Shown here one piece after another: positions 15,599 through 40,618 of a DNA stretch of 64,000 bases. Positions within the stretch are counted from its first letter, which is position 1; each line of letters opens with the position of its first letter. The stretch spans positions 448,001 through 512,000 of the forward strand of contig CAWDXE010000001.1 of the NCBI GenBank assembly GCA_963806185.1, in the 5' to 3' direction. This DNA is from an uncultured candidate division Zixibacteria bacterium (GTDB lineage: Bacteria; Zixibacteria; MSB-5A5; GN15; FEB-12). The notes beneath the pieces were generated by a model, which did no database searches, was not told the origin of the DNA, and saw nothing but the letters and a program-made list of their open reading frames with translations. A program made the translations under genes and the position numbers.

Positions 15599-15613
15599 TA
15601 AAGCTCCCCGAAC
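15599..15613 (+). repeat. att-like direct repeat, left boundary of PGA island
   Basis: taaagctccccgaac, identical at 40604..40618; core taaagctcccc spans the tRNA-Asn 3' end at 44732. Confidence 0.7.
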
Positions 15614-15712
15614 AGGTGATTCTATAATTTTGGGACGGTTTATTCAGGGGCTTGTGGGAATCGACTGCCAAGAGACTGTGACTCTTACGGAAGTGGGTCG
15701 TGCGACAGCAGA

Positions 15713-15738
15713 AGGCCGCCCCATGAAGAGGCGGCCTC
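15713..15738 (-). terminator. probable terminator hairpin
   Basis: aggccgcc...ggcggcct just past the stop at 15762. Confidence 0.45.
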
Positions 15739-15761
15739 GCAGGAACGAAAGGAATGTGATT

Positions 15762-18700
15762 CTACTGACACGCCGGCAGCGGCGCGAAGGTGATGAACAG
15801 GTTGTTGATCAAAGCTGTCAGGTCGCCGATGTCGATGCCGCCTAATCCGTCACAATTGGCCTCCGGCTCGCAGCAGAGCGGCTCAAAGGTGATAAACAGG
15901 TTGTTGATCAGTGACGTCAAGTCGCCAATGTCAACACCATCACCTTCGCTGCAGTCGACATTTCCAACTACGGCAATACAGCAACTGGCACTCGGTCCGC
16001 CCACGGCCAACCAACCAAGATCGGTCATGCCGGTCGCCGATACCGTGTTGGCGGCTGTGTCTACTACGGTAGCTGCCACTGGACTCCACGTGGAGCCGCT
16101 ATCGCCACTGCGATAGAGTATCAATGTCGCTTCCGTCACACCATTCAACTCGCCATCGACATAGTGGAACACGACTGCGGCGTTCGCGCCTGTCTTCACC
16201 GTCGGTTTGACGGCGAAGTGTCGCTTAATACTGGGGCTGCCGCCGACCGTCAAAGACGTACCCGTGACGCGCGTAACCTGCGTAGAACCCGGCGCTGTCC
16301 CGGCCGCGGCTATTTCGAGGCCAAGTCCGCCAAATAATTCCGGCGTCCCGCTCGCAAGCGCTCTCGTCGTGCCAACCCGGCCCTGGACAACCCAAATGGA
16401 GTCCTCGACAATTGTCGCCGACGGTGCAAGCGTCACCGCAAAGGCTTCCGTTGAAAGAACGCTGTCGGCCAAATGTAGTTGGCCATTGACCGTCACATTG
16501 CTGCCCAGTTTCACCCCCTTGTTGCCAAGGATGCGCAGATCGCGAAGAGCCGTTGCCGACACAGGCAATTCCGGACCAGTCGTCACTGAATCGACCGAGC
16601 TGATATACTCGACATCAACGACGCTGTCGAAAACAGGTGCCACGGTCAGCGAACCAGTAGCTCGACGAAGGGTTGACTGCTTCGCCATGTGCAGCGCCTT
16701 ATCGTCGGATGAACCGTTATTGTCGAACGTCCCCATTGAGAGAGTTAGATCGCCGTTAACTGTCGCATTGGTTCCGAGCGTTACCGTCTGGCCCGACGAA
16801 TAGATGGTCAGATCTCTCAGCGTCGTAGTCGCCGTCGGCAGTTCCGGGCCGGTGGTGACGCCCGTTGTCGAACTGGTGTAGCGGACATTAACCACGCCCT
16901 CAAACTGCGGCGCCGCCGCTATCGTACCGGTCGCCCGGCTGATCGTCGCACCGTTCCCCAGTTTCAGATTGGCCGTACCCGCACTGTTGTCGATCTGGCC
17001 GGAAGTCATGCGCAACAGACTGTCCACCCGGATCGTCTGCCCGCTTCCCGCCAGCACCAGAATAGCGCTGTTGTTCACTTCCAGACTGTCACTCACCAAC
17101 CGATTGTCGGTCAATGTCCAGGTCTTCTTCGTCCCGTTGCCGGCAAAGCTGAACTCGATATCCCAATAGTTGGTGTCGATCACCACCTGGTCGGTGGTGG
17201 CGCTGGACGGGTTGCGCTGATACCGCACCCGGCCATCGTTGACCAGCGTGGGAGGAAAAACGGTCGTCGACGATGTGGTTTTGTAGATGCCCCCGCGCGA
17301 CAGGATGACCACCGAAGTGTCAAACCAGATGTCCGAAGTGGTCTCCTGGAGCAGTATCCCCGCCGAGTCGACGGTGATCGTTCCGGGGTTGAACATCGCT
17401 CCGCTGGTGGTTGTCCCCAGACCGGTGTTGAGATGGAGCGTCCCCCCCGGCTTGACATTGATGTTGGCCAGACTGATGTCGGACGAACTGGCATCGATAA
17501 ACTCAGCCTCGCCATAAATCGTCATCGGCCCGATCGGTGCCGAGCCGGTGTTGGAGCGGACCCAGTGCGATCCGGTACCATCGACCAGGTGGAACTCTGC
17601 TCCCGGCTGGACGGTAATGGTCAGCTGTTGATCGGCGGTGAAATTGCCCGACGAACTCCAGCGTGACTCCAGATCGTCGTCAATCGCCAACAGGAAACTG
17701 CCGCTCTTGACGTCGAGACTGTGCTGAATCCCCAGACGCATGCCCGTACCGGCGGTGCTGACCGTGACGGTGGAGTCCTTGGCGATAATCAGATCACGGA
17801 ACGAGGTTGACCCCGCGCTGGTGCTGAAGCCGGAGATGACAGCCGGAGCGCTGCCGGCGAAAACGACGTACGCGCTGTCGGATGACCAGCCGGCGGAAAA
17901 GACATTGTGGGTTTCGGAGAAGAGGGTGAAATCGCCGTAAATGGAAAGACGACTCTTGGCGTTAAGATCGATCAGCGCGTCGGTGCCGCCGAAGGTGACC
18001 GACTTGCACATCGCCAAGGTATCGTCTACTGAAATCGTATGGCCGGCCAGAATCATCACGTCATCGTCAGCCGTCGGAATGACCCCGCCCAACCAGGTCG
18101 TAGGAGCGGTCCAGGAGCCGGATTGAGCCGAAATCGACTGACCGGAAAGAATGAGGCCGCTCAGGGTCCAGCGCGAGAAGGCATTGACGCCCGCCAGAGT
18201 TACCGTATTGGCGAGAGTGTCGCGCGTACCGCCGCGCAGTATCCAGGTCGCGCCGTAGTCTGAGGATGCGTACAACACCAGAGTGTTTTCGTCCAGTCCA
18301 TTGAGATCGGCCTGGTCGTACGTAAACACCATCGTGGCATTCAAAGCGGTGTTGTTTGCGGGTGAGATGTCAAAGTAACGAGAAACACTTGGGCTGCCAG
18401 TTAATCACCTGGGGCTGGCCCGTGACTCGCGTGACGTTGGTCACACCCGGCACACCGCCGGCGGCATTGATTGAAATGCCCAGCCCACCAAACGTTTCGG
18501 CCGTCGATTGTGCCATTGTCCGCGAAGTGGCGATGTTACCGAGGACGCCAAAACCGTTGGTTTCGGTCAGGGTGGCGGTCTGAGCAAGGGTCAATGTGTA
18601 GCCATCGGTCGACAGATCGCTGCCGTTGACAACAACTGCACCGTTGACGGTGGCGTTGCTGCCGAGAGTCACACCTTTGTCGCCGGTAATGGTCAGATTG

Positions 18701-21318
18701 CGAAGCACGGCGGTTCCCGTCGGAATTTCAAAGGCAGTGATAGCCGGACTGACGGTGCTGATGTATTCCACATCCACGACTCCGGCAAAGCCGGGGGCCG
18801 CTGTCAGAGCGGCTGAGGCCCGCCGAATAGTTGAACCGTCGGCCATATTCAAAGTGTAGTCGTCGTCCGCACCGTTGTTATCAAACGTGCCGGCGGAGAG
18901 GGTAAGAGCGCCGTTTACCACCGCGTCGGCGCCAAGCGTTACGATCTGGTCGCTGGTAAATATCTGCAGGTCGCGCAGAGCGGAGGAGGAAGTCGGCAGT
19001 TCTTTGCCGGTCGTCACAGAAGTTGCGCTGCTGGTATATTTTACGTCGCATACGCCCGCAAACGACGGCGCCGAGGTCATGGTGCCGGTGGCTCGAGAGA
19101 TTAGACTGCCATCGGCCATGCTAATGGTCACGTTCCCACCCGTATTGTCCAGGGTGCCCGAAGTGAGACGGAGGGTGTTATTGATAGTCAGCGTCTGGGC
19201 CGAGGCCGCGCTCGGATAAACCGTGGCGCTATTATTGACTATGAAGCTGTCGGTAACCATGCGTGGTGCCGTCAGGGCCCACAGCTTACGATGGCTTCCG
19301 CCGGCAAAGCTGAATTCTACGTCCTTGTAATCGCGATCCACGACGTTCTGATCGGACGCCGTCGAAGGGTCGCGCTGATAACGTACCTTGCCGTTATTGG
19401 TGAAATTCGTCGGAAAGATGGTCGAACTTCCGGTCGTCTTGTACGTGCCGCCGGGATTTAAGATCACGATAGACGTATCAAACCAGAGGTTGGACGTCGA
19501 GGTGCTGTAAATGTTTCCTCCGGAGTCGACAGTAATCGTTCCCGGATTGAACATGGCGCCGCTCGTGGACGTATAGAGACTCAATCCCAGTTCCACGGTA
19601 CCGCCCGCTTTTACATCGATTCCGGCGATACTGATATCCGACGAACTGGCGTCAGTAAATTCCGCATAACCGTAGACGGTCATTTTTCCGATCGGTACCG
19701 AACCGGTATTTGACCGAATCCAGTGGACGCCACTGGCTCCGTCATTGACTAACCGGAACTCGCCGTTCGGCTCCACAGTGATTTTCAAATTCTGGTCGCC
19801 GGTCAGAGCCGCACTGCTCGCCCATCGGGCTTCCAATTCGTCGTCCGTTGCCAGGACGAACTTGCCGCTCTTGATATCCAGACTATTTTGGATACCAAAA
19901 CGACAATTCGTGCCACTGGTTGTGAGCACTGTTCCGGAGTCCTTATCGACGATAATATCCCGGAACGCCGTGCATCCAGCGGAAGTGCTCCATCCATAGA
20001 GAGTCTGCGTCGCACCGCCGGCGAACCGGACAAAGGCGCTATCGGACGACCACCCGGCCGAGAATACATTGTGTACCTGACTGAACAGCGTGAAATTGCC
20101 ATAGACAGACAAGGTAGACTTTGCGTTGAGATCGATGTGGGATGCAGTGTCACCAAATGATATCGACTGGCATTCCGCAAAATTGTCGTCGATGGATATG
20201 GTGTGACCAGCGGCAATCACCACCGGATCATTCATGGTCGGAACGATGCCGCCGGCCCAGGTGACGGCTGATGACCATGAACCGGATTGGGCTGACGTAA
20301 TCTGTACGTCGGGAGCAAATGTCTGCGCCACCGCATCGGCCAGTTTGTACCAATTGGCCTCGGTGTCGCGAAGTTTGGCGTACGCCTGTTCGAGATGAAG
20401 GAACTGGCCCGTATTCGCAGTTGCCGCCTGATCGCACGGGTCAGCCGACCCGTTGATCAGTCGTCCCTGCACATTATCCTGACCGAGGTAGTAGTTGTAG
20501 GCCAGGTCCACGTGCGCGATCTTGAACGTCAGCGTGTTGTCTTGCAGTAGTAGCTTTGCCTTGAGTGGGGCCAGGTACTCGGTCGCAGGAGTCAGCTGGC
20601 TGCCGTTGCTCATGATAATATCCGGGTCCTCAGCGCTGTAATCCCCCTTGGTATACCCATGAGGCTGGATGACGATGGCGTTGCTGCGGTAGGCAAGCAG
20701 CTCCTCAGTGGTAATCTCAAATGTCGCGCTGGAGGCATGCGCCTGATCGCCGAGGCGATACGGCTCGGACGAATCAGCACACGAAGTAGAGGTCCCGGAA
20801 CATGGAGAATAAGAAGTGGAATTGCACTTGTGAGCGCCGGCCAGGCAGAAGATCCAGGCGTCGGCGGTGGTGTATACTCGAATCGACTGATTGCCTGTAT
20901 TCAGATTCTGCAGGGGATGAGGCGCCTGAATGACCAGGCGAGACCGGCTCGGGCTGGGATTGAATACGAATGTACCCCAGTAGTTGGTCGTGGAGCCGGG
21001 TGTCCGTTCGAGCACCCAATAGACCTGATCAATCACGGGCGGCGTGTCGGTGAATTGCACCACTCGATAGTCGATCGTCCCGGCGAGAGTATGGGCGGCC
21101 GCGTGATCACCACTCAGCATCGCCTGAATAATCTGGCGCCACGTCTGAGTCCCGGTGGTAGTCGGTTCCACATACTTGTCTTGATCGATCCCCGCATCGG
21201 TCGGCGACGCGGCGATAATTGAGTCGATGTGACTAGTGATACTCCCAGTCATCGTGACCTGGCCGCTCGCGCTGGCGCAGATCAGCATCAATGCGATGAG
21301 CATTAACCGGTGATACAC
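15762..21318 (-). CDS. large secreted protein (~1850 aa): putative Zn-hydrolase head, two beta-rich repeat modules, dockerin-like tail; +1 frameshift near 18399
   Basis: Removing one base joins ORFs 18370..21459 and 15762..18344 as VINGSPSVSRYFDISP, matching internal paralog GGSPSIKRHF; tail GNVDCSEGDGVDIGDLTSLINNLF duplicated; GTG start after AGGAGG. Confidence 0.8.
16808..18047 (+). repeat. ~1.24 kb near-identical intragenic duplication, copy 1
   Basis: Matches 23710..24949 (offset 6902) with only a few substitutions. Confidence 0.95.
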
Positions 21319-21455: not shown

Positions 21456-22517
21456 TCATGGCGTGAACTCAAAGAGGGTTGTGTCGTATGTGTAGTGCCT
21501 CAGCGCGGAGGCAGTAGCCGGCGACTGGGACTGCAGAAGTTCAGCCACCGCGTCGATTTCCGTCTGGGTCAGTTTCGCGCGCGACGCAACAGCCACCGCG
21601 ACGGTCGTTGCTGTGTCGGATTCACACTTCAAGCCGTCAGAAAACGCGTTCGCCATTGCCTCATTGGGATCGACAATCGCCACGCGATACCCCAATTGCG
21701 CATGAAACGCGCTGTCAAATTCCTTGCGGGCATAGCCGTAGTGCGTGCAGCAGAGTGCCACCACTGCCTCGCCACGATTCTCCGGACCGCGCTTGCTCAA
21801 AGCCTCCTGCACGTACATGCTGATCAGGCTATTCACGATGTCGCTCGCCGGATCAGTCTGAATCTCCGACTCAAGATCCTCGCAGGCCTGCGTCACGATT
21901 CGATTCGCGGGAATTCCGGACTGCTCGAGGCCGCGTTGGTGAGCCTCGGATTGAATGGTCGTCGGCGTCCCCATGATGATTGCCCATTTCGAACTGTCGC
22001 TTTCCAGCTCCTCTCGCAAGGGAGCAACGCCGAAATCGACAATCCCGGCGACCGGCACCGTGCCCGTCGAGGCAAATTCCGTTGCCGGATAGACAACCGA
22101 TAGTGTATTGCAGGCGATGAGAATAATGTCGGGATGATACTTTTGGGTGAATCCGCTCAGCGCTGAGGAGAAGACGCGGGCTTTTGACCCAAGGTCAGGC
22201 ATTCTGTTGTACAGATGCTCGTTGTCGGGTAACGCGTTTGCATAGACGAGATCGACCTTGGACCCCAGCGAACAGTCACGCAACCGTTGTTCGATTGCGG
22301 CCGCCACCGACAGACCCCCCAGACCTGAGTCGGTAATGACGATGGTCACGCGGTCTTTGTGAAACAAAGCGGCGATCGCACTGGAAAGGCTGCGATCGCC
22401 AAGAACTGCGTTGTCGCTAAGAGCAGAGAGAAGTGGCCAGGTCGTGACGATCAACGCCAACACTGGGATTCGACAAAACCAATGGGAAACTCGGGTTGTC
22501 TGTCGCCCCTGCCTCAT
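21456..22517 (-). CDS. glutamate racemase family (MurI-like) with N-terminal signal/TM segment
   Basis: DSGLGGLSV, IACNTLS and LCCTHY two-cysteine motifs; hydrophobic IPVLALIVTTWPLLSALS leader. Confidence 0.88.
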   Translation of the reverse strand: MRQGRQTTRVSHWFCRIPVLALIVTTWPLLSALSDNAVLGDRSLSSAIAALFHKDRVTIVITDSGLGGLSVAAAIEQRLRDCSLGSKVDLVYANALPDNEHLYNRMPDLGSKARVFSSALSGFTQKYHPDIILIACNTLSVVYPATEFASTGTVPVAGIVDFGVAPLREELESDSSKWAIIMGTPTTIQSEAHQRGLEQSGIPANRIVTQACEDLESEIQTDPASDIVNSLISMYVQEALSKRGPENRGEAVVALCCTHYGYARKEFDSAFHAQLGYRVAIVDPNEAMANAFSDGLKCESDTATTVAVAVASRAKLTQTEIDAVAELLQSQSPATASALRHYTYDTTLFEFTP

Positions 22518-22936: not shown

Positions 22937-25900
22937 TCAATTGCTGCAATCAGGGAGCGGTGCGAACGTGATGAAGAGGTTATTGATCAAAGCAGTAAGA
23001 TCCCCGATATCGATCCCGCCAACTCCGTCGCAATTTGCTTCACCGTCGCAACAGAGGGGTGCGAAGTCAATAAACAGGTTATTTATGAGACTCGTGAGGT
23101 CGCCGATATCAACCCCGTCATCTTCTGAGCAATCGACATTTCCGACTGTGCCAACGCAACAACCCAAATCTGCCGTTCCGAGCGTCAGCCACCCAAGTCG
23201 ATCAAGCCCCGAAGCGCTCACAAAATTCCCCGTGGTGTCGATGACACCAGGAAGTGGATTCCAGCTCGCTCCTGAATCCAGGCTCTGATATAGTCCAAGT
23301 GTGGCCTCGCCCAGACCATTTAATTCCAATACTCCGTAATGGAACACCACCGCGGCATTCAAGCCGCTTGTGACACTCGGGTCACCTGTATAGTAGCGTA
23401 AAATGCCGTTGCCGGTGGACAGCGTCTGGGCTGTGCCGGTGACTCTCATGACATGTGTTGAACCGGGAGTTGTGCCGGCGGCCGTAATTTCCAGACCAAT
23501 GCCGCCGAAATTCTGCGTCACACCCTGGTTAATTGTCCGCGTCGTTTGCACACGTCCCCAGACTGACCATAATGAATCTTCGATTAGAGTAGCCGTTGGC
23601 CCCAGCGTCAACGTATAGGCACCCGTAAGGAGGGACGAGTCGGCAACGTGAACAGTCCCACTTGCAGTTGCGTTCGCGCCCAAACTGATACCTTTGGGAG
23701 TAGCAACAGTCAGATCTCTCAGCGTCGTTGTCGCCGTCGGCAGTTCCGGGCCGGTGGTGACGCCCGTTGTCGAACTGGTGTAGCGGACATTAACCACGCC
23801 CTCAAACTGCGGCGCCGCCGCTATCGTACCGGTCGCCCGGCTGATCGTCGCACCGTTCCCCAGTTTCAGATTGGCCGTACCCGCACTGTTGTCGATCTGG
23901 CCGGAAGTCATGCGCAACAGACTGTCCACCCGGATCGTCTGCCCGCTTCCCGCCAGCACCAGAATAGCGCTGTTGTTCACTTCCAGACTGTCACTCACCA
24001 ACCGATTGTCGGTCAATGTCCAGGTCTTCTTCGTCCCGTTGCCGGCAAAGCTGAACTCGATATCCCAATAGTTGGTGTCGATCACCACCTGGTCGGTGGT
24101 GGCGCTGGACGGGTTGCGCTGATACCGCACCCGGCCATCGTTGACCAGCGTGGGAGGAAAAACGGTCGTCGACGATGTGGTTTTGTAGATGCCCCCGCGC
24201 GACAGGATGACCACCGAAGTGTCAAACCAGATGTCCGAAGTGGTCTCCTGGAGCAGTATCCCCGCCGAGTCGACGGTGATCGTTCCGGGGTTGAACATCG
24301 CTCCGCTGGTGGTTGTCCCCAGACCGGTGTTGAGATGGAGCGTCCCCCCCGGCTTGACATTGATGGTGGCCAGACTGATGTCGGACGAACTGGCATCGAT
24401 AAACTCAGCCTCGCCATAAATCGTCATCGGCCCGATCGGTGCCGAGCCGGTGTTGGAGCGGACCCAGTGCGATCCGGTACCATCGACCAGGTGGAACTCT
24501 GCTCCCGGCTGGACGGTAATGGTCAGCTGTTGATCGGCGGTGAAATTGCCCGACGAACTCCAGCGTGACTCCAGATCGTCGTCAATCGCCAACAGGAAAC
24601 TGCCGCTCTTGACGTCGAGACTGTGCTGAATCCCCAGACGCATGCCCGTACCGGCGGTGCTGACCGTGACGGTGGAGTCCTTGGCGATAATCAGATCACG
24701 GAACGAGGTTGACCCCGCGCTGGTGCTGAAGCCGGAGATGACAGCCGGAGCGCTGCCGGCGAAAACGACGTACGCGCTGTCGGATGACCAGCCGGCGGAA
24801 AAGACATTGTGGGTTTCGGAGAAGAGGGTGAAATCGCCGTAAATGGAAAGACGACTCTTGGCGTTAAGATCGATCAGCGCGTCGGTGCCGCCGAACGTGA
24901 CCGACTTGCACATCGCCAAGGTATCGTCTACTGAAATCGTATGGCCGGCAGAGATGACAACATCATCAGTTGGGCCGGGCACGAGGCCGCCGATCCAGGT
25001 GTCGGGATCAGTCCAGCTCCCGCCCTGGGCGGTGCCGAAATTGATGTGTGCGGGAAACGTCGCGGCAATCGCATTGGCCAGTTTATTCCAATTGGCCTCA
25101 GTATCTCTCAAACCCGTGTATACCTGTTCCAGGTGAATGAAGCGTCCGGTCGTTGAGGTGGCCAATGTGCCACATGGATCGGCGCTGCCGTTTATCAGCC
25201 TTCCCTGGGTATTATCACGGCCTATCAGGCGGTCCCAGGTCATGTCGACATGCGCGACCTTGAACGTGAGAGTCGCATCCTGGAGCAGCAGATTATCACG
25301 CAATTGGATCGCATAGTCGTCGATGGGCGTATACCTGGTGCCGTTACTCATGATGATATCCGGATCGCCTGCCTCGGGCGAGAAGCCGTGCGGCTGGATA
25401 ACGATGAGATTCGGAATCGGGGTCAGCATCTCTTCCATGGTTACCTGAAATGGTCCCAGCACAACATGAGCCTGATCGGAGTAGCGATAGTTGTCGTAAG
25501 TTTCCGAACAGGCTGTCGTGGTGCCGTCGCACGGGGAAGCTGTGACGCCGTTGCACCGATGCGTACCGGAAAGAAAGTAGGCCTTGGCGCCCGTTTTGCG
25601 AAAGGCATGAAACCCCTGTTGTCCGGTCTTACGATCGTGCAGAGGATGCGGGCACTGAATGACCAGCGTCGGCCGCCAGGGTGATGGATTGAACACGAAC
25701 GTGCCCCAATACCGTGACGCGGATGTCGCTTGCCGTTCCAGAATGTAATACAGTTTGTCGGGTGTGGCCACGGTGTCGGTGAACGCGGTGACCTGATATT
25801 CGATAGACTCGCCCAGCGAGTCGGCGACGGCATAATTGCCATTGAGGATATTCTGGATAATCGACCGCCACAGCGTACGCGACGACGCCCCCGGTTGAAG

Positions 25901-27235: not shown

Positions 27236-27664
27236 TCATCGTATCAGCACAATTATCAGGAAGGTAATAGCACTCACCACGCCGAGCGCGGCGGCGGTTT
27301 TCACGAAACCCTGGCGTGAGGACTCGTTGGCGATTAGTCCCGGAATGATGTAGCCGATCGACTGCATATTAAGCGGGAATCCTGCGAAGGGCTGAAACTG
27401 CATCTCAATCCCTACCTTAATGCAGAAGCCGAGCAGAACAGCCAACAGCAGGCGACGTCGTCCGTACAGAATGGCGTGACGCGAAAGGAAGAGCATGATC
27501 GCCCACACTGCCGCCGCGAGAAGCAGGGTGATCGCAATGCGGCCGGGTTCGTAAACATAGAGCGCACAATAGGCGGGGGCGATTACCCCGCCCGGAGAAA
27601 TGTCGGTCAATTCATAAAACAGAAAGCCGACTACCAGCCCGATGAAAAAGTACTCAAACAACAT
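27236..27664 (-). CDS. pgsC: PGA biosynthesis membrane protein PgsC/CapC
   Basis: SPGGVIAPAY, ILYGRRR, SIGYIIPGLIAN. Confidence 0.93.
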   Translation of the reverse strand: MLFEYFFIGLVVGFLFYELTDISPGGVIAPAYCALYVYEPGRIAITLLLAAAVWAIMLFLSRHAILYGRRRLLLAVLLGFCIKVGIEMQFQPFAGFPLNMQSIGYIIPGLIANESSRQGFVKTAAALGVVSAITFLIIVLIR

Positions 27665-31470: not shown

Positions 31471-32549
31471 TGCTTATCACCTCATCATAGGACGGCAGCC
31501 CGCCGGTCACAATACTTTTGTCCGGATACATCTCTGAATAGGCGCCAAGGATCGCCTGGAAACCCTGCAAATGGCGCCCCACCCGCAGATCAAGCGGCTC
31601 ACCCTCGGGAAGATATTCAATACGCAGCTTTCCGGATTCCAGCGCGCGTTTATACTCCTCGCTGACGCCATACAGGATCAACTGCTCATCGGTCTTGCCG
31701 CGCAGTCGCCCCTGAATAGGGTTGCTGGTCTCCATGAGGAACGGCATGACGTCCGTCCGGTCTCCCCATTCACGATGGCTCAGGCCGCGAAAGCTCTCCG
31801 GCGATGATTCGGGTGAATAGCGAAGGTCGGACATTTCCAGATTCAGCACCGCTGCGAGGGCAACATCTTCTCCTTTGGGATGGTATACGATCGCATTGAT
31901 AATAGGTATCTCCGGTGCGGCTTCGTGCAGGTCGAACGCTACATCGACGTTCTCCTTCTGGATCAGTTGCATGATTGCGTAAGCGACTTTTTCGGTGAAA
32001 CTGCCGTCCGGCCGTCCCGGATATGCTCGATTGAGATTGCGCGATTCGAACCCGGATAACTGATTGCCCGACGGATAGTGGAGATAAACCAGCGGATCGG
32101 GCCACTGGTCGATCGGATTAGACACGCGCGAACCGAACCGAAATGTGCGTGGAGCGGTCTGCCCTTTGATTGTGAACGAGGTAGGGCATCCTTCAAATGG
32201 ATCAGTGCAGCTGAAGCCACTGGCGCAAGCCTGTGGAATCACCAGCAACCGGCCGGGCGGTCACGTTCGCATTCTCAGCTACGAGAGTAGCGGTGATGAA
32301 TCCGGAAGGTTCGTTTGGATGAGTCCCGCCGAGGAGAAGCACCGTTGCGCCCGGATGGCCGCTCTCGAAGAAGTAGATCTTCGTATCGCCGGATGTTCCC
32401 TTGATCTCCGTGAAGTAGTCGCTCAGCATGCCGGTACGCGTCAAGTGCTCCGACGGTCTGATCAGATCGGGTACACGTTGGGCCAGGAAATCCATAGAGG
32501 CCGCTGTCGCCATTACAGCGGCACACAACAGGAAGAAGACGGCAGACAA
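31445..32549 (-). CDS. succinylglutamate desuccinylase/aspartoacylase (M14-like) Zn deacylase; frameshift near 32255
   Basis: GGTHPNEPSG, RNLNRAYPG, FDLHEA, FLMET; TTG start after GGAGG is tentative. Confidence 0.85.
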
Positions 32550-32581
32550 TACCTGCCTCCGGGTGCTCGGGTGCGTAGGAC

Positions 32582-32728
32582 CTACTTGATCAGCAGGGCC
32601 CGCAACACGAACGGAATCAGAATCATCGCGTACGCGGCTTGTCGTTTCCATGAGCGCTCCGAAAACATCTCTGTACCGAACACTACTATCAGATAAATGA
32701 TGATCGCTATATGCAACCAGAATAACAT
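32582..32728 (-). CDS. 48-aa two-TM membrane peptide (not in ORF track)
   Basis: MLFWLHIAIIIYLIVVFGTEMFSERSWKRQAAYAMILIPFVLRALLIK; TGATG coupling to the permease stop; GGGGAG RBS. Confidence 0.75.
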   Translation of the reverse strand: MLFWLHIAIIIYLIVVFGTEMFSERSWKRQAAYAMILIPFVLRALLIK

Positions 32729-34014
32729 CAGTATCTCCCCTGGCTGACAAAATTCAGTGCCACGGCGATCTCCTCTGCGAAAATCACGATCAACAGCGCA
32801 ACCGTAGCTGCCGCGGTCATTGGAATCAGGCTTTGCTTCAGGATCGCAAACGGATTCTTCTCACCGACTATCTGTCCGGCGTAGGCACACAGCAGGGTCG
32901 GTGGCGGCATTAGATCCCCAAGCGCAGCCATAAGCGCCAGCCCGGCGGTGACGATGATCGCGTTCTTGGTCACAAACACGAAAACCAGCGGCACTCCGAT
33001 GACCGAGGCGGAGGCATAGGCCGAACCCATAAACGGCATGATCAATACCGCCAGATACTTGAATTGATCCGGAAGCAATAATGCGCTGGTCGCCAGGTAT
33101 CCGCGTACGCCGGTGAGGGTCATGATCTGAAGGAACATCCCTACTCCCACCAGGATCGCCATGACCGGCATCGCGGAACGAATCCCCTCACGGGAGACCG
33201 TCAGAAAATTGAACTTCTGCCCGGTACCCAGGGCGGTCAAGGCGCCTATCATGAATGCCAGCGGAACGCCAAGATGCGGGATCTTTGCCGGCAGGATTCG
33301 CTCGATGATCAGATAGCCAACCACCACCACCAACGGTATGAACAATTTCAGCCCAAACTGCGAATAGACCGGTTGGGCGAGCTGAGCCAGCACTGCCTTA
33401 ATCTCAAAGTCTTTCAGGTAACGATAGCGATAGAACACAGCCAGAAGGATAGCCAGTGGAAAAGTCGCCAACAGGAGCGGGATTTCGAATCCAATGTACG
33501 GCATGTCAACTCCGCCCCCGATTATCATGACCGGAATGCAGATCGGCGGCGCAACCTCTCCAAGAACTGCCGCCATGGCAATCAGGGATCCCACCGCTAT
33601 TCGCGGCATCCCCATCGCCAGCAACCCCGGGGCAACCAGCGCTCCGGTAGTCAGGATGCAGGCCGACGACAATCCGGTGAGCATCCCCGGGAACATGACG
33701 AAGAAAGTTATGACGATCATCAGAAGCGTCGGCCGGCGATAGAGCGTCTTGATCAGTCCGTAGTTGATCGTGCCCAGTGCCCCGGTCGCGTCGACCACTC
33801 GCATATACACCATTGCTGTCGCAATGATCAATATCGCCTCCAGAAAGCCGAATGATCCCTCTACCAAGTGCCGGACGGGAAATCCTTCTCCTCCAACTAC
33901 GCCTCCCACTACCGCTCCTAACATGAGCGACAATCCGGCGGGAAGCTTGAACAGGAATACCCCGAAGGCGAACGTCGCCAGCATCGCGAGAAGTATGATC
34001 AGTTCAAAGCTCAT
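32728..34014 (-). CDS. TRAP large-subunit (DctM-like, IT superfamily) permease
   Basis: 428 aa polytopic; RHLVEG, FPGMLTG, APPICIP, DLMPPP. Confidence 0.8.
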   Translation of the reverse strand: MSFELIILLAMLATFAFGVFLFKLPAGLSLMLGAVVGGVVGGEGFPVRHLVEGSFGFLEAILIIATAMVYMRVVDATGALGTINYGLIKTLYRRPTLLMIVITFFVMFPGMLTGLSSACILTTGALVAPGLLAMGMPRIAVGSLIAMAAVLGEVAPPICIPVMIIGGGVDMPYIGFEIPLLLATFPLAILLAVFYRYRYLKDFEIKAVLAQLAQPVYSQFGLKLFIPLVVVVGYLIIERILPAKIPHLGVPLAFMIGALTALGTGQKFNFLTVSREGIRSAMPVMAILVGVGMFLQIMTLTGVRGYLATSALLLPDQFKYLAVLIMPFMGSAYASASVIGVPLVFVFVTKNAIIVTAGLALMAALGDLMPPPTLLCAYAGQIVGEKNPFAILKQSLIPMTAAATVALLIVIFAEEIAVALNFVSQGRY

Positions 34015-34087: not shown

Positions 34088-35377
34088 TTAGAATTGCACC
34101 TGCAATTCAGTCATAAAGCGCGTTTTCGCTACGCGGTCTTCCGACCAGGTGACGGCGCCGCTGTTGTTGACATCCCGATCCTCGCCGTTCGGATAGTTCT
34201 TCGCAATACGGAACTGCAGTCGGGCTTGTGGCGAGACTTCGTAATACACCATCATCGCCAATTCGTCGTCCATCGTGTTGTAGTCATCGTTGTTGACGTA
34301 TTCGCTGACGGCGGTGTATTGTATCTGAAAGCGCACCTGTTTCATTTGGCGGGGTATGAGGTACAGCCGCGAGTACCAGATGCGACTTCCCTCGGGATTG
34401 AATCCATTGTAGGGGTAATCGCCGCCGATGGCGCCATCCACGTATCCTGCCCGACTGCCCCAGTAGAATCCCGGGTAGGCCGGGCTGAATATCTCCGTCT
34501 TCTCCGTCGTGGCATCGTTCCCTTGATAGGCCGCATAGCGGGTCTCAGCTTTCACGGAACGGAACGGACCCCACGCCCAGCGGTAGCTGATCCCGGCCAT
34601 ATAACCTATGCCACCCTTGTCCGGCAGACCGGAAAGCGTATTGAACTTCTGGCCGGCCAATTCGGCGAAATATTGGAGGCGATTGCGCATGAAATTGCCG
34701 CTCGCTCCGCCGCCGACGACATAGTGATCATTGAAGTCGCCGCGCAACCGGTCGTATACGTAATACCCCATGACCGTCTGATTTCCGAACGCTCGCGAGA
34801 GTCGGGCGATATACAGTTGATCGCTTCCGGGGTCAGGGTAGAGGCCGCTTGCACTCAACGTCTGCTCGGTGATGGCGCCAAACAATGAAAGGGTGTAGGC
34901 GCGGTAGGCCATGTCAAAGCGGATCGCGTCGAACTTGTCGAAATACTCAACCGATTCGCCCTGTACCAGCCCTTCGCCCAAGGGGAATTGCTGGCGCCCG
35001 ACGCGCGCACGAAACAGATCGAAAACGAGGAATTTCGGCTGTACCAGTTCCGCGTATAGCTGGCTGATACCATACTGCATCTTGCCGGTTCCGGCTATAT
35101 TGCGCACCGGTGAAACCGGGCTGCTCTCGCTGAAAACGGTTAACTCAGAAAATACCGAGGCATTCCGATTTACCTGCGCCTTGGTCCGGACTCTGGCGAG
35201 ATACCGCAAATAGTTTTCCGTTCCTCGATCATCAAGGGCATCCGAGAACCGGTCACTGTACGCCCGAAGCCGGAAGTCGCCTTCGGTCGTGATCTGCTGA
35301 GATCGTCCATCAACGCTCATCAGAACGAGAAACCCCGCGACGAGCAAGCTCGAAATGTGTCGATAATGCCAGTTCAT
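34088..35377 (-). CDS. outer-membrane porin (alginate-export-like)
   Basis: Signal peptide, GDFRLR, RVGRQQF, FDAIR, terminal ELQVQF. Confidence 0.7.
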   Translation of the reverse strand: MNWHYRHISSLLVAGFLVLMSVDGRSQQITTEGDFRLRAYSDRFSDALDDRGTENYLRYLARVRTKAQVNRNASVFSELTVFSESSPVSPVRNIAGTGKMQYGISQLYAELVQPKFLVFDLFRARVGRQQFPLGEGLVQGESVEYFDKFDAIRFDMAYRAYTLSLFGAITEQTLSASGLYPDPGSDQLYIARLSRAFGNQTVMGYYVYDRLRGDFNDHYVVGGGASGNFMRNRLQYFAELAGQKFNTLSGLPDKGGIGYMAGISYRWAWGPFRSVKAETRYAAYQGNDATTEKTEIFSPAYPGFYWGSRAGYVDGAIGGDYPYNGFNPEGSRIWYSRLYLIPRQMKQVRFQIQYTAVSEYVNNDDYNTMDDELAMMVYYEVSPQARLQFRIAKNYPNGEDRDVNNSGAVTWSEDRVAKTRFMTELQVQF

Positions 35378-35387
35378 GGTGTTAACC

Positions 35388-37244
35388 TCATTCCTGCGTA
35401 AAGGTAATGCCCGTCGGTTGAGCGTTGCCCCGGTTTGGCACTTCATATGTCTTCAGCACGGTGCCGTTGGTTGACACCTGGAAGATGTAGTCGAACTCGA
35501 ACGTGCTGTTGGCGATCCAGAAATTGGCGCCATCCCACGCCATGCCGGTGGCATACCGATCGGACGTTGTGCCGTTGGGTGGAATCGGTGTCACGAATTG
35601 CGCCGTCCAGGTGCTGGTTCCGAAATCGTATTGATACACCGAGTCCAGCTGGTAGTCATTGCAGTACAGATGGCCGTCCGCATACACAATGCCTCGCGCC
35701 TCGACTCCGGGCGTTCCAATCGAATCCAGCACCGCGCCGGTCAACGTATCCATTTTGTAGATGTGTGCGGAGGTGCTGTTGCAGGCCCACAAGTACTCGC
35801 CGTCGAAAGCCAGATCCCTGATCACGCCCGATGCCGCCGGCGGCGCCGTAAACGTCCGGGTTGAACTCAACGTTGCGCCCGACGTATTGAGGCGCATGAC
35901 CGCATCGTCCGTGCCGCCCGCGCTTATCCAGATGTAGGTGCCGTCGTAGGTCAGACCCTGCGTCGAGCCACCCGGAGCGACACCGAGGGTGCTCCATCCG
36001 GCGACGATTGAGTCGTTGCTCACCTTGACCTTGTAGAGCGAATCCGAGTACGCGTCGGTAAACCAGAGATACCCGGCATTCGGATCGACATTGAGTATGG
36101 TAAACACCCCTGTACCCACGGCCACCTGACCGTCGGGATTGGTCACCGTAACATCCCGCGCACCGAACTCGGCATCGTCGGTGATTTCTATATCCGCGCG
36201 GATCGCCGATCCGCTCTGGAAGACCGCCGTTTGTACCACAATGCCCGCCCCGAATGACACTTCGAGGCCCGATCCGGGCAGGAAGTGCGCACCGTTGATC
36301 ACGACCGACAACACCGCTCCGCGGGTTCCCGTATTGGGCGATACGCCTGTCACTTCGGGAGCCGGAGCTATGCGCGCATCTTTGGTAGACCAGACAATCG
36401 GCCCCGGCGTATCAAACGAAAGTTCGATACGATTCAACTCCATACCGTTTTGCTTGAGTTCGTAGAGATAGTCCGCCACGCTGCTCGAATTGATCAGCCA
36501 AAACTGGCGGCCATCAAAAGAAAGTCCGTTCGGAAAGATGTAGGATGCCCCTGCCGGCGGCTGAGGTGCCTTGAAAGCGCCTTGAAAGACCTGCTTGTCC
36601 GGCCGGAAGGCATACACCGAGTCCAGGGTGACATCCGCGATATACAGTCCGGCGTCGAGGCCTGAACCATAGGCGTCAGAATTGGCGCCTACATAACACA
36701 ACCCGCGCGGCTCCGGACCGGGAAGAGCAATCTCTGAAAGTACGCTGCCGTCGTCCGGGTTTAACTTATAGAGAGTAGGGGGAGTACCATATGTCTCTGA
36801 ACCGCTGTTGAGTGCCCACAGATACGAGCCATCCCAGGCGATATCACGGACAGTCCCTCGACCAGTCGGCGGCGCATCAAACGAATTTAATACCACAAGT
36901 GAATCGGTGCTTGCGTCCACGCGGTAAATCAGGTCCGCCCCGCCGGCAACAGACAACCAAAGGTTGCTGCCGTCAAAGGTGATCCCCTGAAAACTCGTCG
37001 TCTCGATCAAACTCTCCAGCGACCAGGAAGCGACCAGCTCAAGATTCCGGTCAAACATCTTCAGGGTGTACGAACCGTTGTCGATGCAATAAAAGTACCC
37101 CGCTTCCGAAGTAATTCCCGCGTCTTGGTCCCCGTCGTTCACGAACAGACTGTCGCATGACGCCAAGGCTAAAAGCGTCCAGAGCGCCAAACCGAGTGCT
37201 CCGACACGGTACGCCAATGATGACCTGTTCAACCTGCCCTCCAA
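35388..37244 (-). CDS. surface lipoprotein: two beta-propeller-like modules around an IPT/TIG domain
   Basis: Lipobox LALASC; repeated (G/D)(I/L/M).(F/W/Y)DG..(L/F/I)W blades; PEVTGVSP...RDVTVTNPDG. Confidence 0.75.
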   Translation of the reverse strand: MEGRLNRSSLAYRVGALGLALWTLLALASCDSLFVNDGDQDAGITSEAGYFYCIDNGSYTLKMFDRNLELVASWSLESLIETTSFQGITFDGSNLWLSVAGGADLIYRVDASTDSLVVLNSFDAPPTGRGTVRDIAWDGSYLWALNSGSETYGTPPTLYKLNPDDGSVLSEIALPGPEPRGLCYVGANSDAYGSGLDAGLYIADVTLDSVYAFRPDKQVFQGAFKAPQPPAGASYIFPNGLSFDGRQFWLINSSSVADYLYELKQNGMELNRIELSFDTPGPIVWSTKDARIAPAPEVTGVSPNTGTRGAVLSVVINGAHFLPGSGLEVSFGAGIVVQTAVFQSGSAIRADIEITDDAEFGARDVTVTNPDGQVAVGTGVFTILNVDPNAGYLWFTDAYSDSLYKVKVSNDSIVAGWSTLGVAPGGSTQGLTYDGTYIWISAGGTDDAVMRLNTSGATLSSTRTFTAPPAASGVIRDLAFDGEYLWACNSTSAHIYKMDTLTGAVLDSIGTPGVEARGIVYADGHLYCNDYQLDSVYQYDFGTSTWTAQFVTPIPPNGTTSDRYATGMAWDGANFWIANSTFEFDYIFQVSTNGTVLKTYEVPNRGNAQPTGITFTQE

Positions 37245-37356
37245 TCGGCTACTATTCTTATGCCGTCAACTGGCCAGCAGTCGGTACGGCAGCTGTTTTT
37301 CCTATCACCAGTCTGTTGCCACAGACATCGGACCTGGGATTCCGCAATTGGCCTAC

Positions 37357-37371
37357 ACAATATGCGTGCCA
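37357..37371 (-). promoter_or_regulatory. sigma-54 -24/-12-like promoter for the PGA operon
   Basis: Minus strand TGGCACGCATATTGT, ~115 bp upstream of the first gene, next to a divergent sigma-54 activator pair. Confidence 0.6.
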
Positions 37372-37647
37372 AAGTGCTCCGCTTCCCGTGGCCACACACT
37401 TAAGCTCAATTAACGAGTGTGGATATGGCCGTCCAGATATACTTGAAATATCCTATTATTGTGCTATACTAGCTCATATTGATGGGCGCAAATAGCCCGA
37501 AATCGCCGCATGGAGAGCCCGTCTGCCTGTGACTCCATGGCTCTTAGACTTGGGCATGGGAATTGTAAGCGGTCTCTCGGGACCAATGACGGCCGGGGTC
37601 GGGAATCGGCATCGGGTCGGCAAGGTGACCGTAAGTGCAAGGCAAAT

Positions 37648-39204
37648 ATGAGCTTTTTCAATATCCACCGCCGGGCGATCATACTCTCGACGATTTTCGT
37701 TATTCTTGCCCTTCTTCTGGTGGTGATCACCGACTTCTCCCTTGAGAAGTGGCGTCAGGACGTCATTCGCTCCAATACTGACCTGGCTGTTGAGTCTGCG
37801 GCTTTGCTTCACAGCGCCTCAAATTCGGTAATTGACAGCCTGGCTAAAATTGGTGTTCTCGATGCATCAATAGAATCAGTCGACGCCAAACAAGCTCTGG
37901 ACCTTCACCTCAAGGCATTATCCGACAGTATCTTCGCTCCGAGAGAAGGGATGGAGGGGGGACTCTTTTTGGTGCGACTCAATGAGTTTTTCGGCTATGC
38001 CTTTCCGACTTCGCCCCCGCCGATTCCGGTATATGGCCCACCACCGAGATCCCATGCACTGATCTTGGCTCAGGTCCGTCGAACTATCGAGACGGGTGAG
38101 CCGATCGTCGATCTCCACCAATTTGACCCGGCCGTCTTCCCTTTGGCGACTGAACCGATCGAAAGCCAAGGGAGAATCGTCGCGGTGGCTTGGGCACGCA
38201 CGCATATCGAAAGGGATTTCCCCGCCGCTAAGTTGCGGGAGGTCATCAACGTCGGAGCACTCATTGCGCTGCTCGGATTCTCTGTCGCACTCATCATTTC
38301 GGTGACCCAGTATCGCGAGATCCAGCGGATGCGTCGCGATCTCGAACGGGTACAGGATGGCGACGCAGAGACGATCGAGGAGGGAAAAGGAACTCTGGGA
38401 GTGATCGCCAACGCGATCAATATCATGCTTCGCACGATGCGCCTGGACAACTCCCGCCGTGAACAATTGGAACGGGAGTTGCATCACAAAGAGAAGATGG
38501 CGTCGCTTGGCCGTGTGATCGCCGGTGTGGCCCATGAAGTGAAAACGCCTCTCGCGATCATCAAAACAAGGACCCAAATGTGGCAACATTCGTTGCGGGA
38601 TCTCACTGGCTCGGACCAGGAGCGGAGTGTGATCTCCGACGATTCGCTGCAATTGGTGGTGACCGAGGTCGATCGGCTGTCGGAACTGGTGAAAAGACTG
38701 CTGGTCTTTTCCAAACCTCAGCCAATAAAACTGGAGTCGACCGATATCACGGCCGTGCTTCGGCAAACCCTCGCTCTGCTGGATATGCGGAGCGGAAAAC
38801 GTCAAGTCGAGCTGGTGACTGCCTTCGCCGACGATCTGCCGCAGATCCGGGCTGATCGCAGTGCGCTCCAGCAAGTCTTTATGAATGTACTGATGAACTC
38901 ATTTGAAGCAATTTCCGGTTCGGGCCGAATCATCGTAGCGACCAGCTTTGACTCAGTGCGCAAGATCGGTACGGTGACCATCCGGGACACCGGTTGCGGT
39001 ATTCCCGAGGAATTGAACGCCAAGGTCTTTGATCCCTTCGTCACGACCAAGAAAAAGGGATTCGGATTAGGACTGTCCATCTCCTATGAGATTGTGGCAT
39101 CACATGGGGGGACGATCAAACTGCATCCCGACGAATCCGGAGGAACCGTCTGCACTATCGAACTGCCGGCGCAACCGACAAAGGACCTGCATGAGAAGGG
39201 CTAA
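37648..39204 (+). CDS. membrane sensor histidine kinase
   Basis: Two TMs; AGVAHEVKTPL H-box; QVFMNVLMNS, DTGCGI, GFGLGL. Confidence 0.95.
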   Translation: MSFFNIHRRAIILSTIFVILALLLVVITDFSLEKWRQDVIRSNTDLAVESAALLHSASNSVIDSLAKIGVLDASIESVDAKQALDLHLKALSDSIFAPREGMEGGLFLVRLNEFFGYAFPTSPPPIPVYGPPPRSHALILAQVRRTIETGEPIVDLHQFDPAVFPLATEPIESQGRIVAVAWARTHIERDFPAAKLREVINVGALIALLGFSVALIISVTQYREIQRMRRDLERVQDGDAETIEEGKGTLGVIANAINIMLRTMRLDNSRREQLERELHHKEKMASLGRVIAGVAHEVKTPLAIIKTRTQMWQHSLRDLTGSDQERSVISDDSLQLVVTEVDRLSELVKRLLVFSKPQPIKLESTDITAVLRQTLALLDMRSGKRQVELVTAFADDLPQIRADRSALQQVFMNVLMNSFEAISGSGRIIVATSFDSVRKIGTVTIRDTGCGIPEELNAKVFDPFVTTKKKGFGLGLSISYEIVASHGGTIKLHPDESGGTVCTIELPAQPTKDLHEKG

Positions 39205-40576
39205 ACGGATACTGATCGTTGACGACGAAGTGTCAATGCGGAAAAACCTGGTCGATCTGCTCTCCAGCCGGGGATACAGCGTAACTGAGGCCGGCGATGG
39301 GCTCGAAGCGTTACAGGCGGTCTCAGACAATCGCTTTGACCTCGTCCTGCTCGATCTCAATCTCCCCGGTATGGATGGTATCACAGCACTGGGTGAGATT
39401 CGCAATTCACAGCCGGATCTTCCGGTGATCATTTTCACCGCTTACGGAACGAGCGAGCGGGCGATCCGGGCGATGAAGGCGGGCGCCTACGACTACATGG
39501 AGAAACCGTTTGAGCTCGACGAGTTCATGCTGATAGTCCAGCGAGCCGCGGAGTATTCGGAGTTGCTATCAGAGGTTCGAGAACTGAGGAGCAAAGTTTC
39601 GACCATAACGGACAAGTCGAATGTACAGATCATCGGCAGCAGCCCCGCCATGAAGGACATTTTCAAGTTGATTGGCCGTGTCTCCGGCACCGACGCGACC
39701 GTGTTGATCCAGGGTGGCAGCGGCACGGGCAAGGAGCTCATCGCGGATGCCATCCAGCGGCACTCCCGACGGGCGGAAAAGCCGTATGTCAAAGTGCACT
39801 GTGGTGCCTTCTCGGAGAGTGTGCTCGAGAGTGAGATCTTTGGTCATGAAAAGGGAGCGTTTACGGGCGCCATCTCTCAGCACCAGGGGAGATTCGAACT
39901 GGCGGACGGTGGAACGGTATTTCTCGACGAGATCAATACCATGTCGCCCGGGTTGCAGATTCGTTTGCTTCGCGTGCTCCAGGACAAGATGTTTTATCGG
40001 GTGGGGGGAGAGACGCCGGTGCGCGTCGACGTGAGAGTCATTGCGGCGGCCTCCAATGATGTCGGCGACGAGGTACGCCACGGCCGGTTTCGCGAGGACC
40101 TCTTCTATCGCCTGAATGTCGTTCAGATCAATATCCCGCCACTCCTGGAACGCCGCGAAGATATACCATTCCTGGCGCGGCACTTCCTTCAGAAATACAG
40201 TCCCGATCGGGAACTGATGGTAACCGATCGCGATATGGCGACACTTCTGGCGTACAACTGGCCGGGCAATGTGCGCGAGTTGGAGAATACCATCCAGAGC
40301 GCCATTGTTCTGGCTCGCGAAAATGTTATCAACATCGGAGCGCTCCCCGTTCCGAGCCGTGGTATGTCGGGGGTCATATCGCTGGAGAAGCAGTTGGAGC
40401 AAGGAGTATCCCTGAGGGATATCTTGGCCAAAACTGAGAAAGATCTCATCCGGACGGCGTTAATTAAATCCAACTGGAACCGGACGCGGGCGGCCCAGTA
40501 CCTCGGAATTCATCGTCGGCTTCTCTATTCGAAAATGCAGGAGTACGGAATCCTGGAGACAGGCACTACGGATTAG
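39191..40576 (+). CDS. sigma-54-dependent response regulator (NtrC/AtoC family)
   Basis: REC; GGSGTGKE; HEKGAFTGA; FREDLFYRL; Fis-type HTH. Confidence 0.96.
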   Translation: MRRAKRILIVDDEVSMRKNLVDLLSSRGYSVTEAGDGLEALQAVSDNRFDLVLLDLNLPGMDGITALGEIRNSQPDLPVIIFTAYGTSERAIRAMKAGAYDYMEKPFELDEFMLIVQRAAEYSELLSEVRELRSKVSTITDKSNVQIIGSSPAMKDIFKLIGRVSGTDATVLIQGGSGTGKELIADAIQRHSRRAEKPYVKVHCGAFSESVLESEIFGHEKGAFTGAISQHQGRFELADGGTVFLDEINTMSPGLQIRLLRVLQDKMFYRVGGETPVRVDVRVIAAASNDVGDEVRHGRFREDLFYRLNVVQINIPPLLERREDIPFLARHFLQKYSPDRELMVTDRDMATLLAYNWPGNVRELENTIQSAIVLARENVINIGALPVPSRGMSGVISLEKQLEQGVSLRDILAKTEKDLIRTALIKSNWNRTRAAQYLGIHRRLLYSKMQEYGILETGTTD

Positions 40577-40603
40577 CCCTCGCCCGGTACGCTGACACGA
40601 AGC

Positions 40604-40618
40604 TAAAGCTCCCCGAAC
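40604..40618 (+). repeat. att-like direct repeat, right boundary of PGA island
   Basis: taaagctccccgaac, 28 bp after the regulator stop. Confidence 0.7.

Follow-up and report, generated by a model that had tools for sequence, protein, structure and literature searches.

Poly-gamma-glutamate (PGA) is known mostly from Bacillus, and the published accounts consulted leave open how the polymer is exported, localised and reused in Gram-negative producers. In Bacillus, PgsA is required and PGA is controlled by DegS-DegU and ComP-ComA (PMC5751247); PgsB faces the cytoplasm (10.1101/2020.07.17.209205), PgsB and PgsC co-occur in 250 species, and PghP, a zinc hydrolase, is related to carboxypeptidase A (PMC4497714). 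In work on Cloacimonadota, the operon capB-capC-pgsF has been called typical of Gram-negative producers (10.1101/2025.11.11.687785). For another polyamide, cyanophycin, CphZ, a relative of the AstE fold, cleaves the isopeptide dipeptide and clusters with the synthetase (PMC9974463). In this work we describe a 15-gene cluster at positions 15762-40576 of a 64,000-nucleotide stretch of DNA (the window, contig C1:448001-512000) from a candidate division Zixibacteria genome that is in 8 contigs and 82% complete. In it PgsBCW, a known type of PGA synthase judging by its sequence, is combined with transporters, a racemase and cleaving enzymes predicted to be exported, a set that is unstudied. We give somewhat better than even chances to its being a signal-inducible system in which PgsB-PgsC-PgsW would make PGA, which would then be broken down outside the cytoplasm and taken up again as glutamate. 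This make-and-reclaim reading is favoured because the enzyme families act on glutamate, glutamyl bonds or N-acyl amino acids, because export is predicted for the accessory enzymes, and because the module follows the synthase from genome to genome.

The minus strand carries thirteen of the genes, from 37232 down to 15762, and a histidine kinase and sigma-54 regulator pair diverges from them on the plus strand. Genes, order and orientation, the 48-amino-acid peptide included, are those listed by a first reading of the bare sequence (the original prediction). From right to left, the features are:

39191..40576, plus strand: sigma-54-dependent response regulator with receiver, AAA+ and HTH domains, AtoC/NtrC-like (Pfam domains; start taken from an orthologue)
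37648..39204, plus strand: sensor histidine kinase with a predicted periplasmic domain between two hydrophobic segments (Pfam domains)
37552..37566, plus strand: weaker sigma-54-like -24/-12 site pointing toward the kinase/regulator pair (sequence and an aligned conserved block)
37461..37498, no strand: two imperfect dyads, GGGCT-N5-AGCAC-like, likely enhancer sites for the regulator (alignment, pattern against shuffles)
37357..37371, minus strand: sigma-54 -24/-12 promoter motif TGGCAC-N5-TTGT upstream of the long operon (pattern against shuffles)
35388..37232, minus strand: predicted lipoprotein with an LASC lipobox, DUF6923/propeller-like repeats and a TIG-like domain (domain search; co-occurs with the porin)
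34088..35377, minus strand: porin, an AlgE/alginate-export-like outer-membrane beta-barrel with conserved Arg residues (PF13372 in orthologues, Atlas, alignment)
32728..34014, minus strand: permease with about 12 hydrophobic segments, weakly DctM/CitMHS-like (Pfam, below cut-off)
32582..32728, minus strand: conserved 48-amino-acid two-helix membrane peptide with C-terminal LRxxxIK (locus survey)
31445..32561, minus strand: zinc amidohydrolase of the AstE/AspA type (M14) with a hydrophobic anchor at its N-terminus, frameshift at about 32255, start approximate (PF24827)
30838..31386, minus strand: DUF6305 protein, predicted exported, a single Rossmann-like domain with conserved Lys/Arg/His (Pfam and fold search)
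28845..30769, minus strand: gamma-glutamyltranspeptidase (GGT), predicted exported, nucleophile motif HTTHLS, frameshift at about 29512 (Pfam)
27654..28809, minus strand: pgsB synthase, Mur-ligase fold with P-loop GTRGKS, frameshift at about 28345 (TIGR04012, in two pieces)
27236..27661, minus strand: pgsC (TIGR04011)
26113..27231, minus strand: pgsW, hydrophobic segments at both ends, in the position of pgsA (TIGR04332)
22937..26044, minus strand: large predicted secreted hydrolase 1, with a zinc-exopeptidase-fold domain (25043-25981), a G8-containing tail and a C-terminal repeat (fold and alignment)
21456..22517, minus strand: glutamate racemase of the MurI type, both catalytic-Cys motifs being present and the N-terminus resembling a signal peptide (family search and motifs)
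15762..21318, minus strand: large predicted secreted hydrolase 2, about 1850 amino acids in relatives, with the same catalytic domain and a doubled tail, frameshift at about 18395, start approximate (alignment to relatives)

The synthase genes pgsB, pgsC and the TIGR04332 gene are adjacent in that order. PgsC and PgsW score well over the curated cut-offs of their models (113.5 bits against 96.45 for TIGR04011, and 276 against 100 for TIGR04332), and the two pieces of PgsB, each below the cut-off of 222.7, together cover the TIGR04012 model with 148 and 79 bits. As the original prediction had remarked, no CapA/PgsA protein (PF09587) is found in the operon, nor anywhere in the 82% complete genome. 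The hidden Markov model searches that it had proposed for PgsB, PgsC, PgsW and DUF6305 matched, PgsB as just described, and the one for DctM fell short of its threshold. It could be argued that the product is some other glutamyl conjugate (short gamma-glutamyl tags, glutathione-like peptides or N-acyl-glutamates) instead of bulk PGA, given that a sequence search found no solved relative of PgsW and that relatives of FGase and of AstE/DoeB act on small N-acyl amino acids, or that the window holds a decaying copy, with its four frameshifts. We regard both forms of this idea as highly improbable, as PgsC and PgsW pass their cut-offs, the P-loop is kept in 59/59 full-length PgsB orthologues, and Fusobacterium nucleatum figures among the listed Gram-negative producers of PGA (PMC3815933).

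The frameshifts themselves, which split pgsB, the GGT gene, the AstE-like gene and hydrolase 2, are absent from the relatives examined, where all four genes are single open reading frames (ORFs). Outside the cluster, 88 orthologues shared with 248 proteins from 400 kb of the relative G080 carry 18 frameshifts in 33,633 amino acids, borne by 13 of the 88, and at this rate 4.2 would be predicted in the cluster, where 4 are observed. Since the count equals the genome-wide background, the four are most likely assembly errors, and decay specific to the cluster was rejected on this ground.

The linkage of the accessory module to the synthase was followed through several surveys. Among 201 genomes of the phylum, DUF6305 occurs in 8 and pgsW in 35, all 8 being among the 35, which leaves 27 of the 35 with pgsW and no accessory module; the cluster's distribution in the phylum is thus patchy. 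Three stand-alone pgsBCW neighbourhoods that were examined (in G037, G040 and G043) all lack the module. Seven relatives keep the order lipoprotein, porin, permease, AstE-like gene, DUF6305, GGT, pgsB, pgsC, pgsW with the divergent kinase adjoining, and among them the regulator is full length in 6/7, the large hydrolases are present in 6/7 and the racemase in 4/7 (two contigs end early); the window's entire gene order is common to G012 and G080. In a sample of 301 Bacteroidota genomes, a strong DUF6305 match was found in 5, all with pgsW, besides 3 more genomes with pgsW only and 2 with weak DUF6305 matches and no pgsW.

The best 80 of 125 DUF6305 loci in GTDB, some of which may overlap the phylum genomes, come from Bacteroidota, Ignavibacteria, Calditrichota, Krumholzibacteriota, Marinimicrobia and Zixibacteria. 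In the 41 with full flanks, which are the ones counted (the other 39 being too short), the permease and the AstE-like gene are found in 41 each, the small peptide, GGT and pgsBCW in 39 each, the racemase in 30, the hydrolase in 14, and a predicted secreted FGase-like gene in 24. Permease, AstE-like gene, DUF6305, GGT and pgsBCW stand all together in 37 of the 41, which bears out the expectation of the original prediction that the accessory genes co-occur with pgsBCW in other genomes. Ten genomes have the module and no pgsB in the stretch fetched; a check of whole records, in which three metagenome loci were not included, found pgsB elsewhere in 8 and pgsW in a ninth (G211). In whole genomes, then, the module is almost never seen without the synthase, and pgsBCW is often alone.

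A further survey took the best 80 of 566 metagenome loci from a distant, lipoprotein-rich DUF6305 group, of which the 47 that are at least 10 kb long were counted, under an ORF filter that misses part of the genes where GC is high. GGT is present in 45 of them, the AstE-like gene in 42, the permease in 35 and pgsB in 27, and two-component genes recur as well; no racemase, hydrolase or FGase-like gene was seen in any (0/47). Most of these contigs probably come from monoderms, to judge by their lipoprotein signals and the genes they hold, and some fall in with Cetobacterium. Cetobacterium somerae itself (NZ_CP143320), a cultured fish-gut anaerobe of the Fusobacteriota, carries kinase, regulator, ggt, DUF6305, permease, a 47-amino-acid version of the peptide, a desuccinylase-like gene and pgsBCW. 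The core is conserved across several phyla and is not diderm-specific, because it recurs in loci where outer-membrane, racemase and large-hydrolase genes were not detected; the porin, racemase and hydrolases are lineage-dependent add-ons to it. The original prediction's idea of an outer-membrane-adapted system has accordingly to be given up for the core.

The PgsW tree, a quick and unrooted one keeping 85 of 117 rows after near-copies were dropped, puts the window protein together with 45 other module-linked rows (SH-aLRT 98) and apart from 18 stand-alone rows that belong to the same phylum (SH-aLRT 99); one module-linked Bacteroidota row falls outside the module-linked branch. Module-linked PgsW is about 32% identical to its stand-alone counterparts in the phylum. 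No donor is claimed, because the tree is unrooted. At one Bacteroidota locus (L095:10000-19000) the module is present twice, in convergent orientation, and the pgsBCW of the second copy is divergent and lies off the main module-linked branch. Stand-alone pgsBCW of family f2 (L011:15628-18186, L012:1070-3141, L013:13514-21007) is preceded by a BNR-repeat protein and followed by two conserved, unannotated, predicted exported proteins, which are candidates for a different export route.

The degradative enzymes point, by their families' chemistry (GGT, AstE/AspA, the FGase/PghP-like fold and glutamate racemase), at glutamyl or N-acyl-glutamate bonds. The catalytic domain of the large hydrolases was modelled with a pLDDT of 97 as a zinc-exopeptidase fold, its best matches being FGase-like proteins (Z 12.0, 2odf, and 11.9), followed by the phage PGA hydrolase PghP (3a9l; Z 11.3, root-mean-square deviation 3.7, 174 residues aligned), so that the two kinds of match are tied within 1 Z unit. 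A histidine, an aspartate, a second histidine and a glutamate (H191, D195, H277 and E364 in the ORF numbering of hydrolase 1) are kept in 104-105 of 105 aligned rows and are probably metal ligands. Both large hydrolases have this FGase/PghP-like zinc fold, and PGA may be their substrate. The labels of hydrolase-like protein and porin in the original prediction are supported by these fold and feature searches.

Membership of the hydrolase in PF05908, the PghP family, was rejected for lack of any PF05908 sequence match, and its Atlas score of 0.84 to a cluster of that family counts as no more than a lead; a sequence search brought up no solved relative. Relationship by sequence to the FGase-like neighbours was likewise rejected, with an hhalign probability of 2% in a comparison with one sequence. 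Counting whole-domain hits only (E < 1e-130, 8 candidates scored per genome), the hydrolase domain occurs in 7/201 genomes of the phylum, all seven cluster-bearing; without this filter the shared C-terminal tail made all 201 genomes match. At the C-terminus stands a Cys-rich, dockerin-like repeat of about 75 amino acids (15762-15990 and 22937-23180), of which dozens of copies exist genome-wide, and which may be a sorting or anchoring signal, because shorter homologues mostly carry a type IX secretion system (T9SS) tail in its place. The two hydrolase genes also share about 1.17 kb (16828-17993 and 23730-24895) identical but for one base, 6902 bases apart, which suggests recent gene conversion between the tails or their collapse in assembly.

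GGT, DUF6305, the kinase and the response regulator all match Pfam domains over curated cut-offs, and the AstE-like enzyme scores 28.8 bits against PF24827 (cut-off 25), with the metal motif HxxE...H present, HxNE in 73/74 orthologues, an N-terminal hydrophobic stretch in 72/74, and Mlr6093, DoeB and the AstE/AspA structures as its closest solved relatives. A hydrophobic N-terminus is also found in 69/72 GGT orthologues. That the GGT is a CapD-type enzyme was rejected on its scores, as an intact orthologue matches Bacillus GGT large chains at 4e-66 and CapD at 1.8e-45. The racemase is additional to the housekeeping murI on contig C4; it passes the Asp/Glu racemase family PF01177 (31.9 bits, cut-off 31) and stays below the cut-off of TIGR00067 (53.6 bits against 146.65), has the MurI motifs DSG, CNT and C(T/S)H (the second Cys being Gly in 1/14 orthologues), carries a hydrophobic N-terminal extension in 36/36 orthologues, and has YN where the housekeeping MurI has PYG. 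Some Bacteroidales loci (L048:4016-5476, L058:4699-6156) hold another kind of racemase-like lipoprotein, longer at about 485 amino acids, beside a SusC/SusD pair, and neighbouring loci add C45-like or C69 peptidases.

The permease scores 18.3 bits against DctM (PF06808), below the cut-off of 23.8, CitMHS scoring equally well; no solved relative was found by sequence, and among the cluster proteins no Pfam match to a DctP-type binding protein or a DctQ subunit was seen. The small peptide, present in 73 of the 80 GTDB loci and in Cetobacterium, is linked to the permease and not to pgsC. Among 12 longer DUF6305 homologues scanned, one (P0342) is a natural GGT-DUF6305 fusion. The porin itself has no Pfam match, 3/13 of its orthologues match PF13372 (Alginate_exp; best 6.6e-6), its Atlas score is 0.98 with PF13372 carried by 27/30 Atlas matches, and a profile search found no solved relative; from its sequence it is likely an AlgE-family outer-membrane barrel. 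Porin and lipoprotein were found together, at 11 and 11 of the 41 full-flank loci. The outer-membrane slot of these loci is filled by SusC in 21, never together with the porin, by the porin alone in 10, by another TonB receptor alone in 2, by porin and TonB receptor in 1, and by none in 7. SusC/SusD stands in place of the porin in Bacteroidales, and this replacement suggests uptake.

Such import systems fit an account in which the module would first of all sense and eat foreign PGA or gamma-glutamyl peptides, the linked synthase re-polymerising surplus glutamate as a store or coat. SusC/SusD at 21/41 loci and other TonB-dependent receptors at 3/41, the predicted periplasmic sensor domain of the kinase, the T9SS tails on the large secreted hydrolases of relatives, the loci with the module and no nearby pgs genes, and an exported racemase that would be suited to a D-rich foreign polymer could all be read in this way. 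We nevertheless consider foraging as the first function unlikely, as whole genomes almost never have the module without the synthase, in contrast to CphZ, which is found mostly in non-producers (PMC9974463).

The barrel and the racemase raise a different account. Alginate is secreted in a synthase-dependent manner by a machinery that includes AlgE, AlgK, AlgG and AlgL, and in a parallel to it the cluster could mature and secrete PGA, with the racemase as epimerase, GGT anchoring or sizing the chain, the hydrolases clearing strays, exit through the lipoprotein and AlgE-like barrel, and a permease that salvages trimmings only. The pairing of barrel and lipoprotein would agree with it, as would the exported racemase's YN in place of the PYG of MurI, an argument that starts from the role of the PYG motif in MurI. 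CapD-type anchoring is moreover known (PMC3815933). Still, synthesis is presumably independent of the module, as 27/35 pgsW genomes are without it, the porin is missing at 30/41 loci, the GGT is closer to canonical GGT than to CapD, and the racemase retains the MurI motifs for free glutamate, all of which makes maturation, in our view, decidedly unlikely.

The make-and-reclaim reading also has the genes responding to a signal. Sigma-54 promoters follow the well-known -24/-12 consensus, and the pattern TGGCA(C/T)-N5-TTG(T/A) lies upstream of the operon in 12/12 regions against 0.05 expected from shuffles, with a dyad further upstream in 10/12 against 0.24 expected, the contrast being inflated in both cases as the patterns were drawn from 11 of the 12 regions tested, some of them near-copies. 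A gene for the sigma factor, rpoN, is present in the genome. Sequence evidence thus supports the sigma-54 control that had been predicted. On the plus strand the strict -24/-12 pattern is found in 5/12 regions, the window's own not among them, and the weaker site there makes autoregulation of the kinase/regulator pair possible.

Put together, the steps could be as follows. The kinase would detect a signal in the periplasm, and the regulator would activate transcription from the conserved sigma-54 promoter. PgsB and PgsC would polymerise glutamate with ATP, PgsW, whose family membership is established, probably standing in for PgsA. The AlgE-like barrel and the lipoprotein might carry polyanionic chains or oligomers through the outer membrane in either direction, and the two surface hydrolases, given their zinc fold, would cleave the polymer into oligomers. 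Periplasmic GGT and the anchored AstE-like enzyme would trim these, gamma-Glu-Glu going to glutamate by analogy with CphZ and cyanophycin, the exported racemase would turn the freed D-glutamate into L-glutamate and vice versa, and the permease with its peptide, probably aided by DUF6305, would import the glutamate. Hydrolysis, trimming, racemisation and import are derived solely from family chemistry, predicted location and gene linkage.

Several observations weigh against this scheme. It is built from genes, and the genomes compared are related, so that the linkage counts are not independent. Fold searches with DUF6305 gave generic Rossmann-like matches (Z at most 9.7), none like a solute-binding protein, and the hydrolase fold is common to many unrelated zinc peptidases and amidases, carboxypeptidases included (Z 9-10.7). 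One genome (G215) has the module and neither pgsB nor pgsW, and some of the metagenome loci have it with no pgs gene nearby (pgsB in 27 of those 47). Synthesis and breakdown behind one promoter could amount to a futile cycle unless separated in time or place, and an AlgE-like barrel would by its family point to export and maturation over uptake.

The original prediction had also called the cluster a self-contained island. Its patchy occurrence (8/201) agrees with this, as do its flanks, where for six genes of the window no counterpart was seen in the cluster surroundings fetched from 7 relatives. Its composition is ordinary (GC 0.568 against 0.564 for the genome; 40 of 141 genome windows more deviant in tetranucleotides), so that composition does not support a horizontally acquired island, and the idea of a compositional island was rejected; no integrase was found among the proteins scanned with Pfam. 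The nearest tRNA gene, tRNA-Asn at 44736-44809, lies about 4 kb from the right end. To the left, a 164-nucleotide repeat, 96% identical and with two copies only in the whole genome, brackets a methyltransferase gene (14433-15242) at 14168-14331 and 15415-15578 and contains a terminator-like hairpin. To the right of the regulator stand two unannotated ORFs (40791-41678 and 41715-42884), each with one paralogue elsewhere in the genome, which were not found next to the cluster in relatives.

If the make-and-reclaim reading is correct, the cluster supplies a candidate protein for each missing step of Gram-negative PGA handling, and offers probable roles for DUF6305, PgsW, the conserved 48-amino-acid peptide and an unnamed hydrolase family. 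These questions are directly testable, as the core is present in the cultured C. somerae. PGA hydrolases and an exported racemase could also help to control the size and D/L ratio of industrial PGA. More tentatively, and with rather more doubt than belief, the window may hold the fullest form of an undescribed multi-phylum polyglutamate cycle. Its racemase would then be the first of MurI type in the periplasm and might act as an epimerase on the polymer, the large surface hydrolases would form a new family of PGA-cleaving enzymes, the AlgE-like barrel would be a channel for a polyamide, and permease, peptide and DUF6305 would make up a new importer. PGA would in that case serve anaerobic bacteria of sediments, digesters and guts as a shared extracellular store of carbon and nitrogen under regulation.

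In the full-text literature searched, subscription papers being outside its scope, no published description of the accessory module was found, in line with the original prediction, whose author knew of no characterised equivalent of the full set; nor was there a paper on DUF6305 or on Cetobacterium with glutamate and pgsB, a match to the phrases periplasmic, secreted or extracellular glutamate racemase, or, among the papers retrieved, an occurrence of TIGR04332 or 'poly-gamma-glutamate system protein'. The nearest known systems each share a part of the cluster. The alginate operon resembles it in that a single operon brings together an AlgE-like barrel with an adjoining lipoprotein, a periplasmic enzyme that acts on stereochemistry, and enzymes of degradation, and differs in that here the polymer is a polyamide and not a polysaccharide, the lipoprotein is propeller/TIG-like, the racemase is of MurI type, and the barrel is absent from most homologous loci. 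The cyanophycin clusters cphA-cyanophycinase-cphZ and the Pseudomonas aot operon, as far as described (PMC9974463), likewise put a non-ribosomal polyamide synthetase with a depolymerase, an isopeptide dipeptidase of AstE/AspA fold and a transporter; their polymer is different, and in our cluster export is predicted for the enzymes and the module is tied to the synthase. Bacillus subtilis pgsBCAE-pgdS with ggt and PghP-like hydrolases, and Bacillus anthracis capBCADE, share PgsB/PgsC with linked gamma-glutamyl-cleaving enzymes, whereas the genome of our cluster is without PgsA/CapA, its GGT is not CapD-like by score and its hydrolases lie outside PF05908; it adds to the Bacillus sets a permease, DUF6305, an AstE-like enzyme, an exported racemase, an outer-membrane channel and sigma-54 control. 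The closest likeness is with the Gram-negative operons capB-capC-pgsF and pgsB-pgsC-pgsW, which have the same order, a TIGR04332 third gene and no pgsA, PgsF and PgsW being probably one and the same protein; Fusobacterium nucleatum is reportedly the subject of a 2009 PGA study by Candela. The account of the Cloacimonadota operon consulted describes three genes only, whereas the cluster here has twelve more attached, and with its porin, lipoprotein, two large hydrolases and conserved sigma-54 sites the window's version is the fullest.

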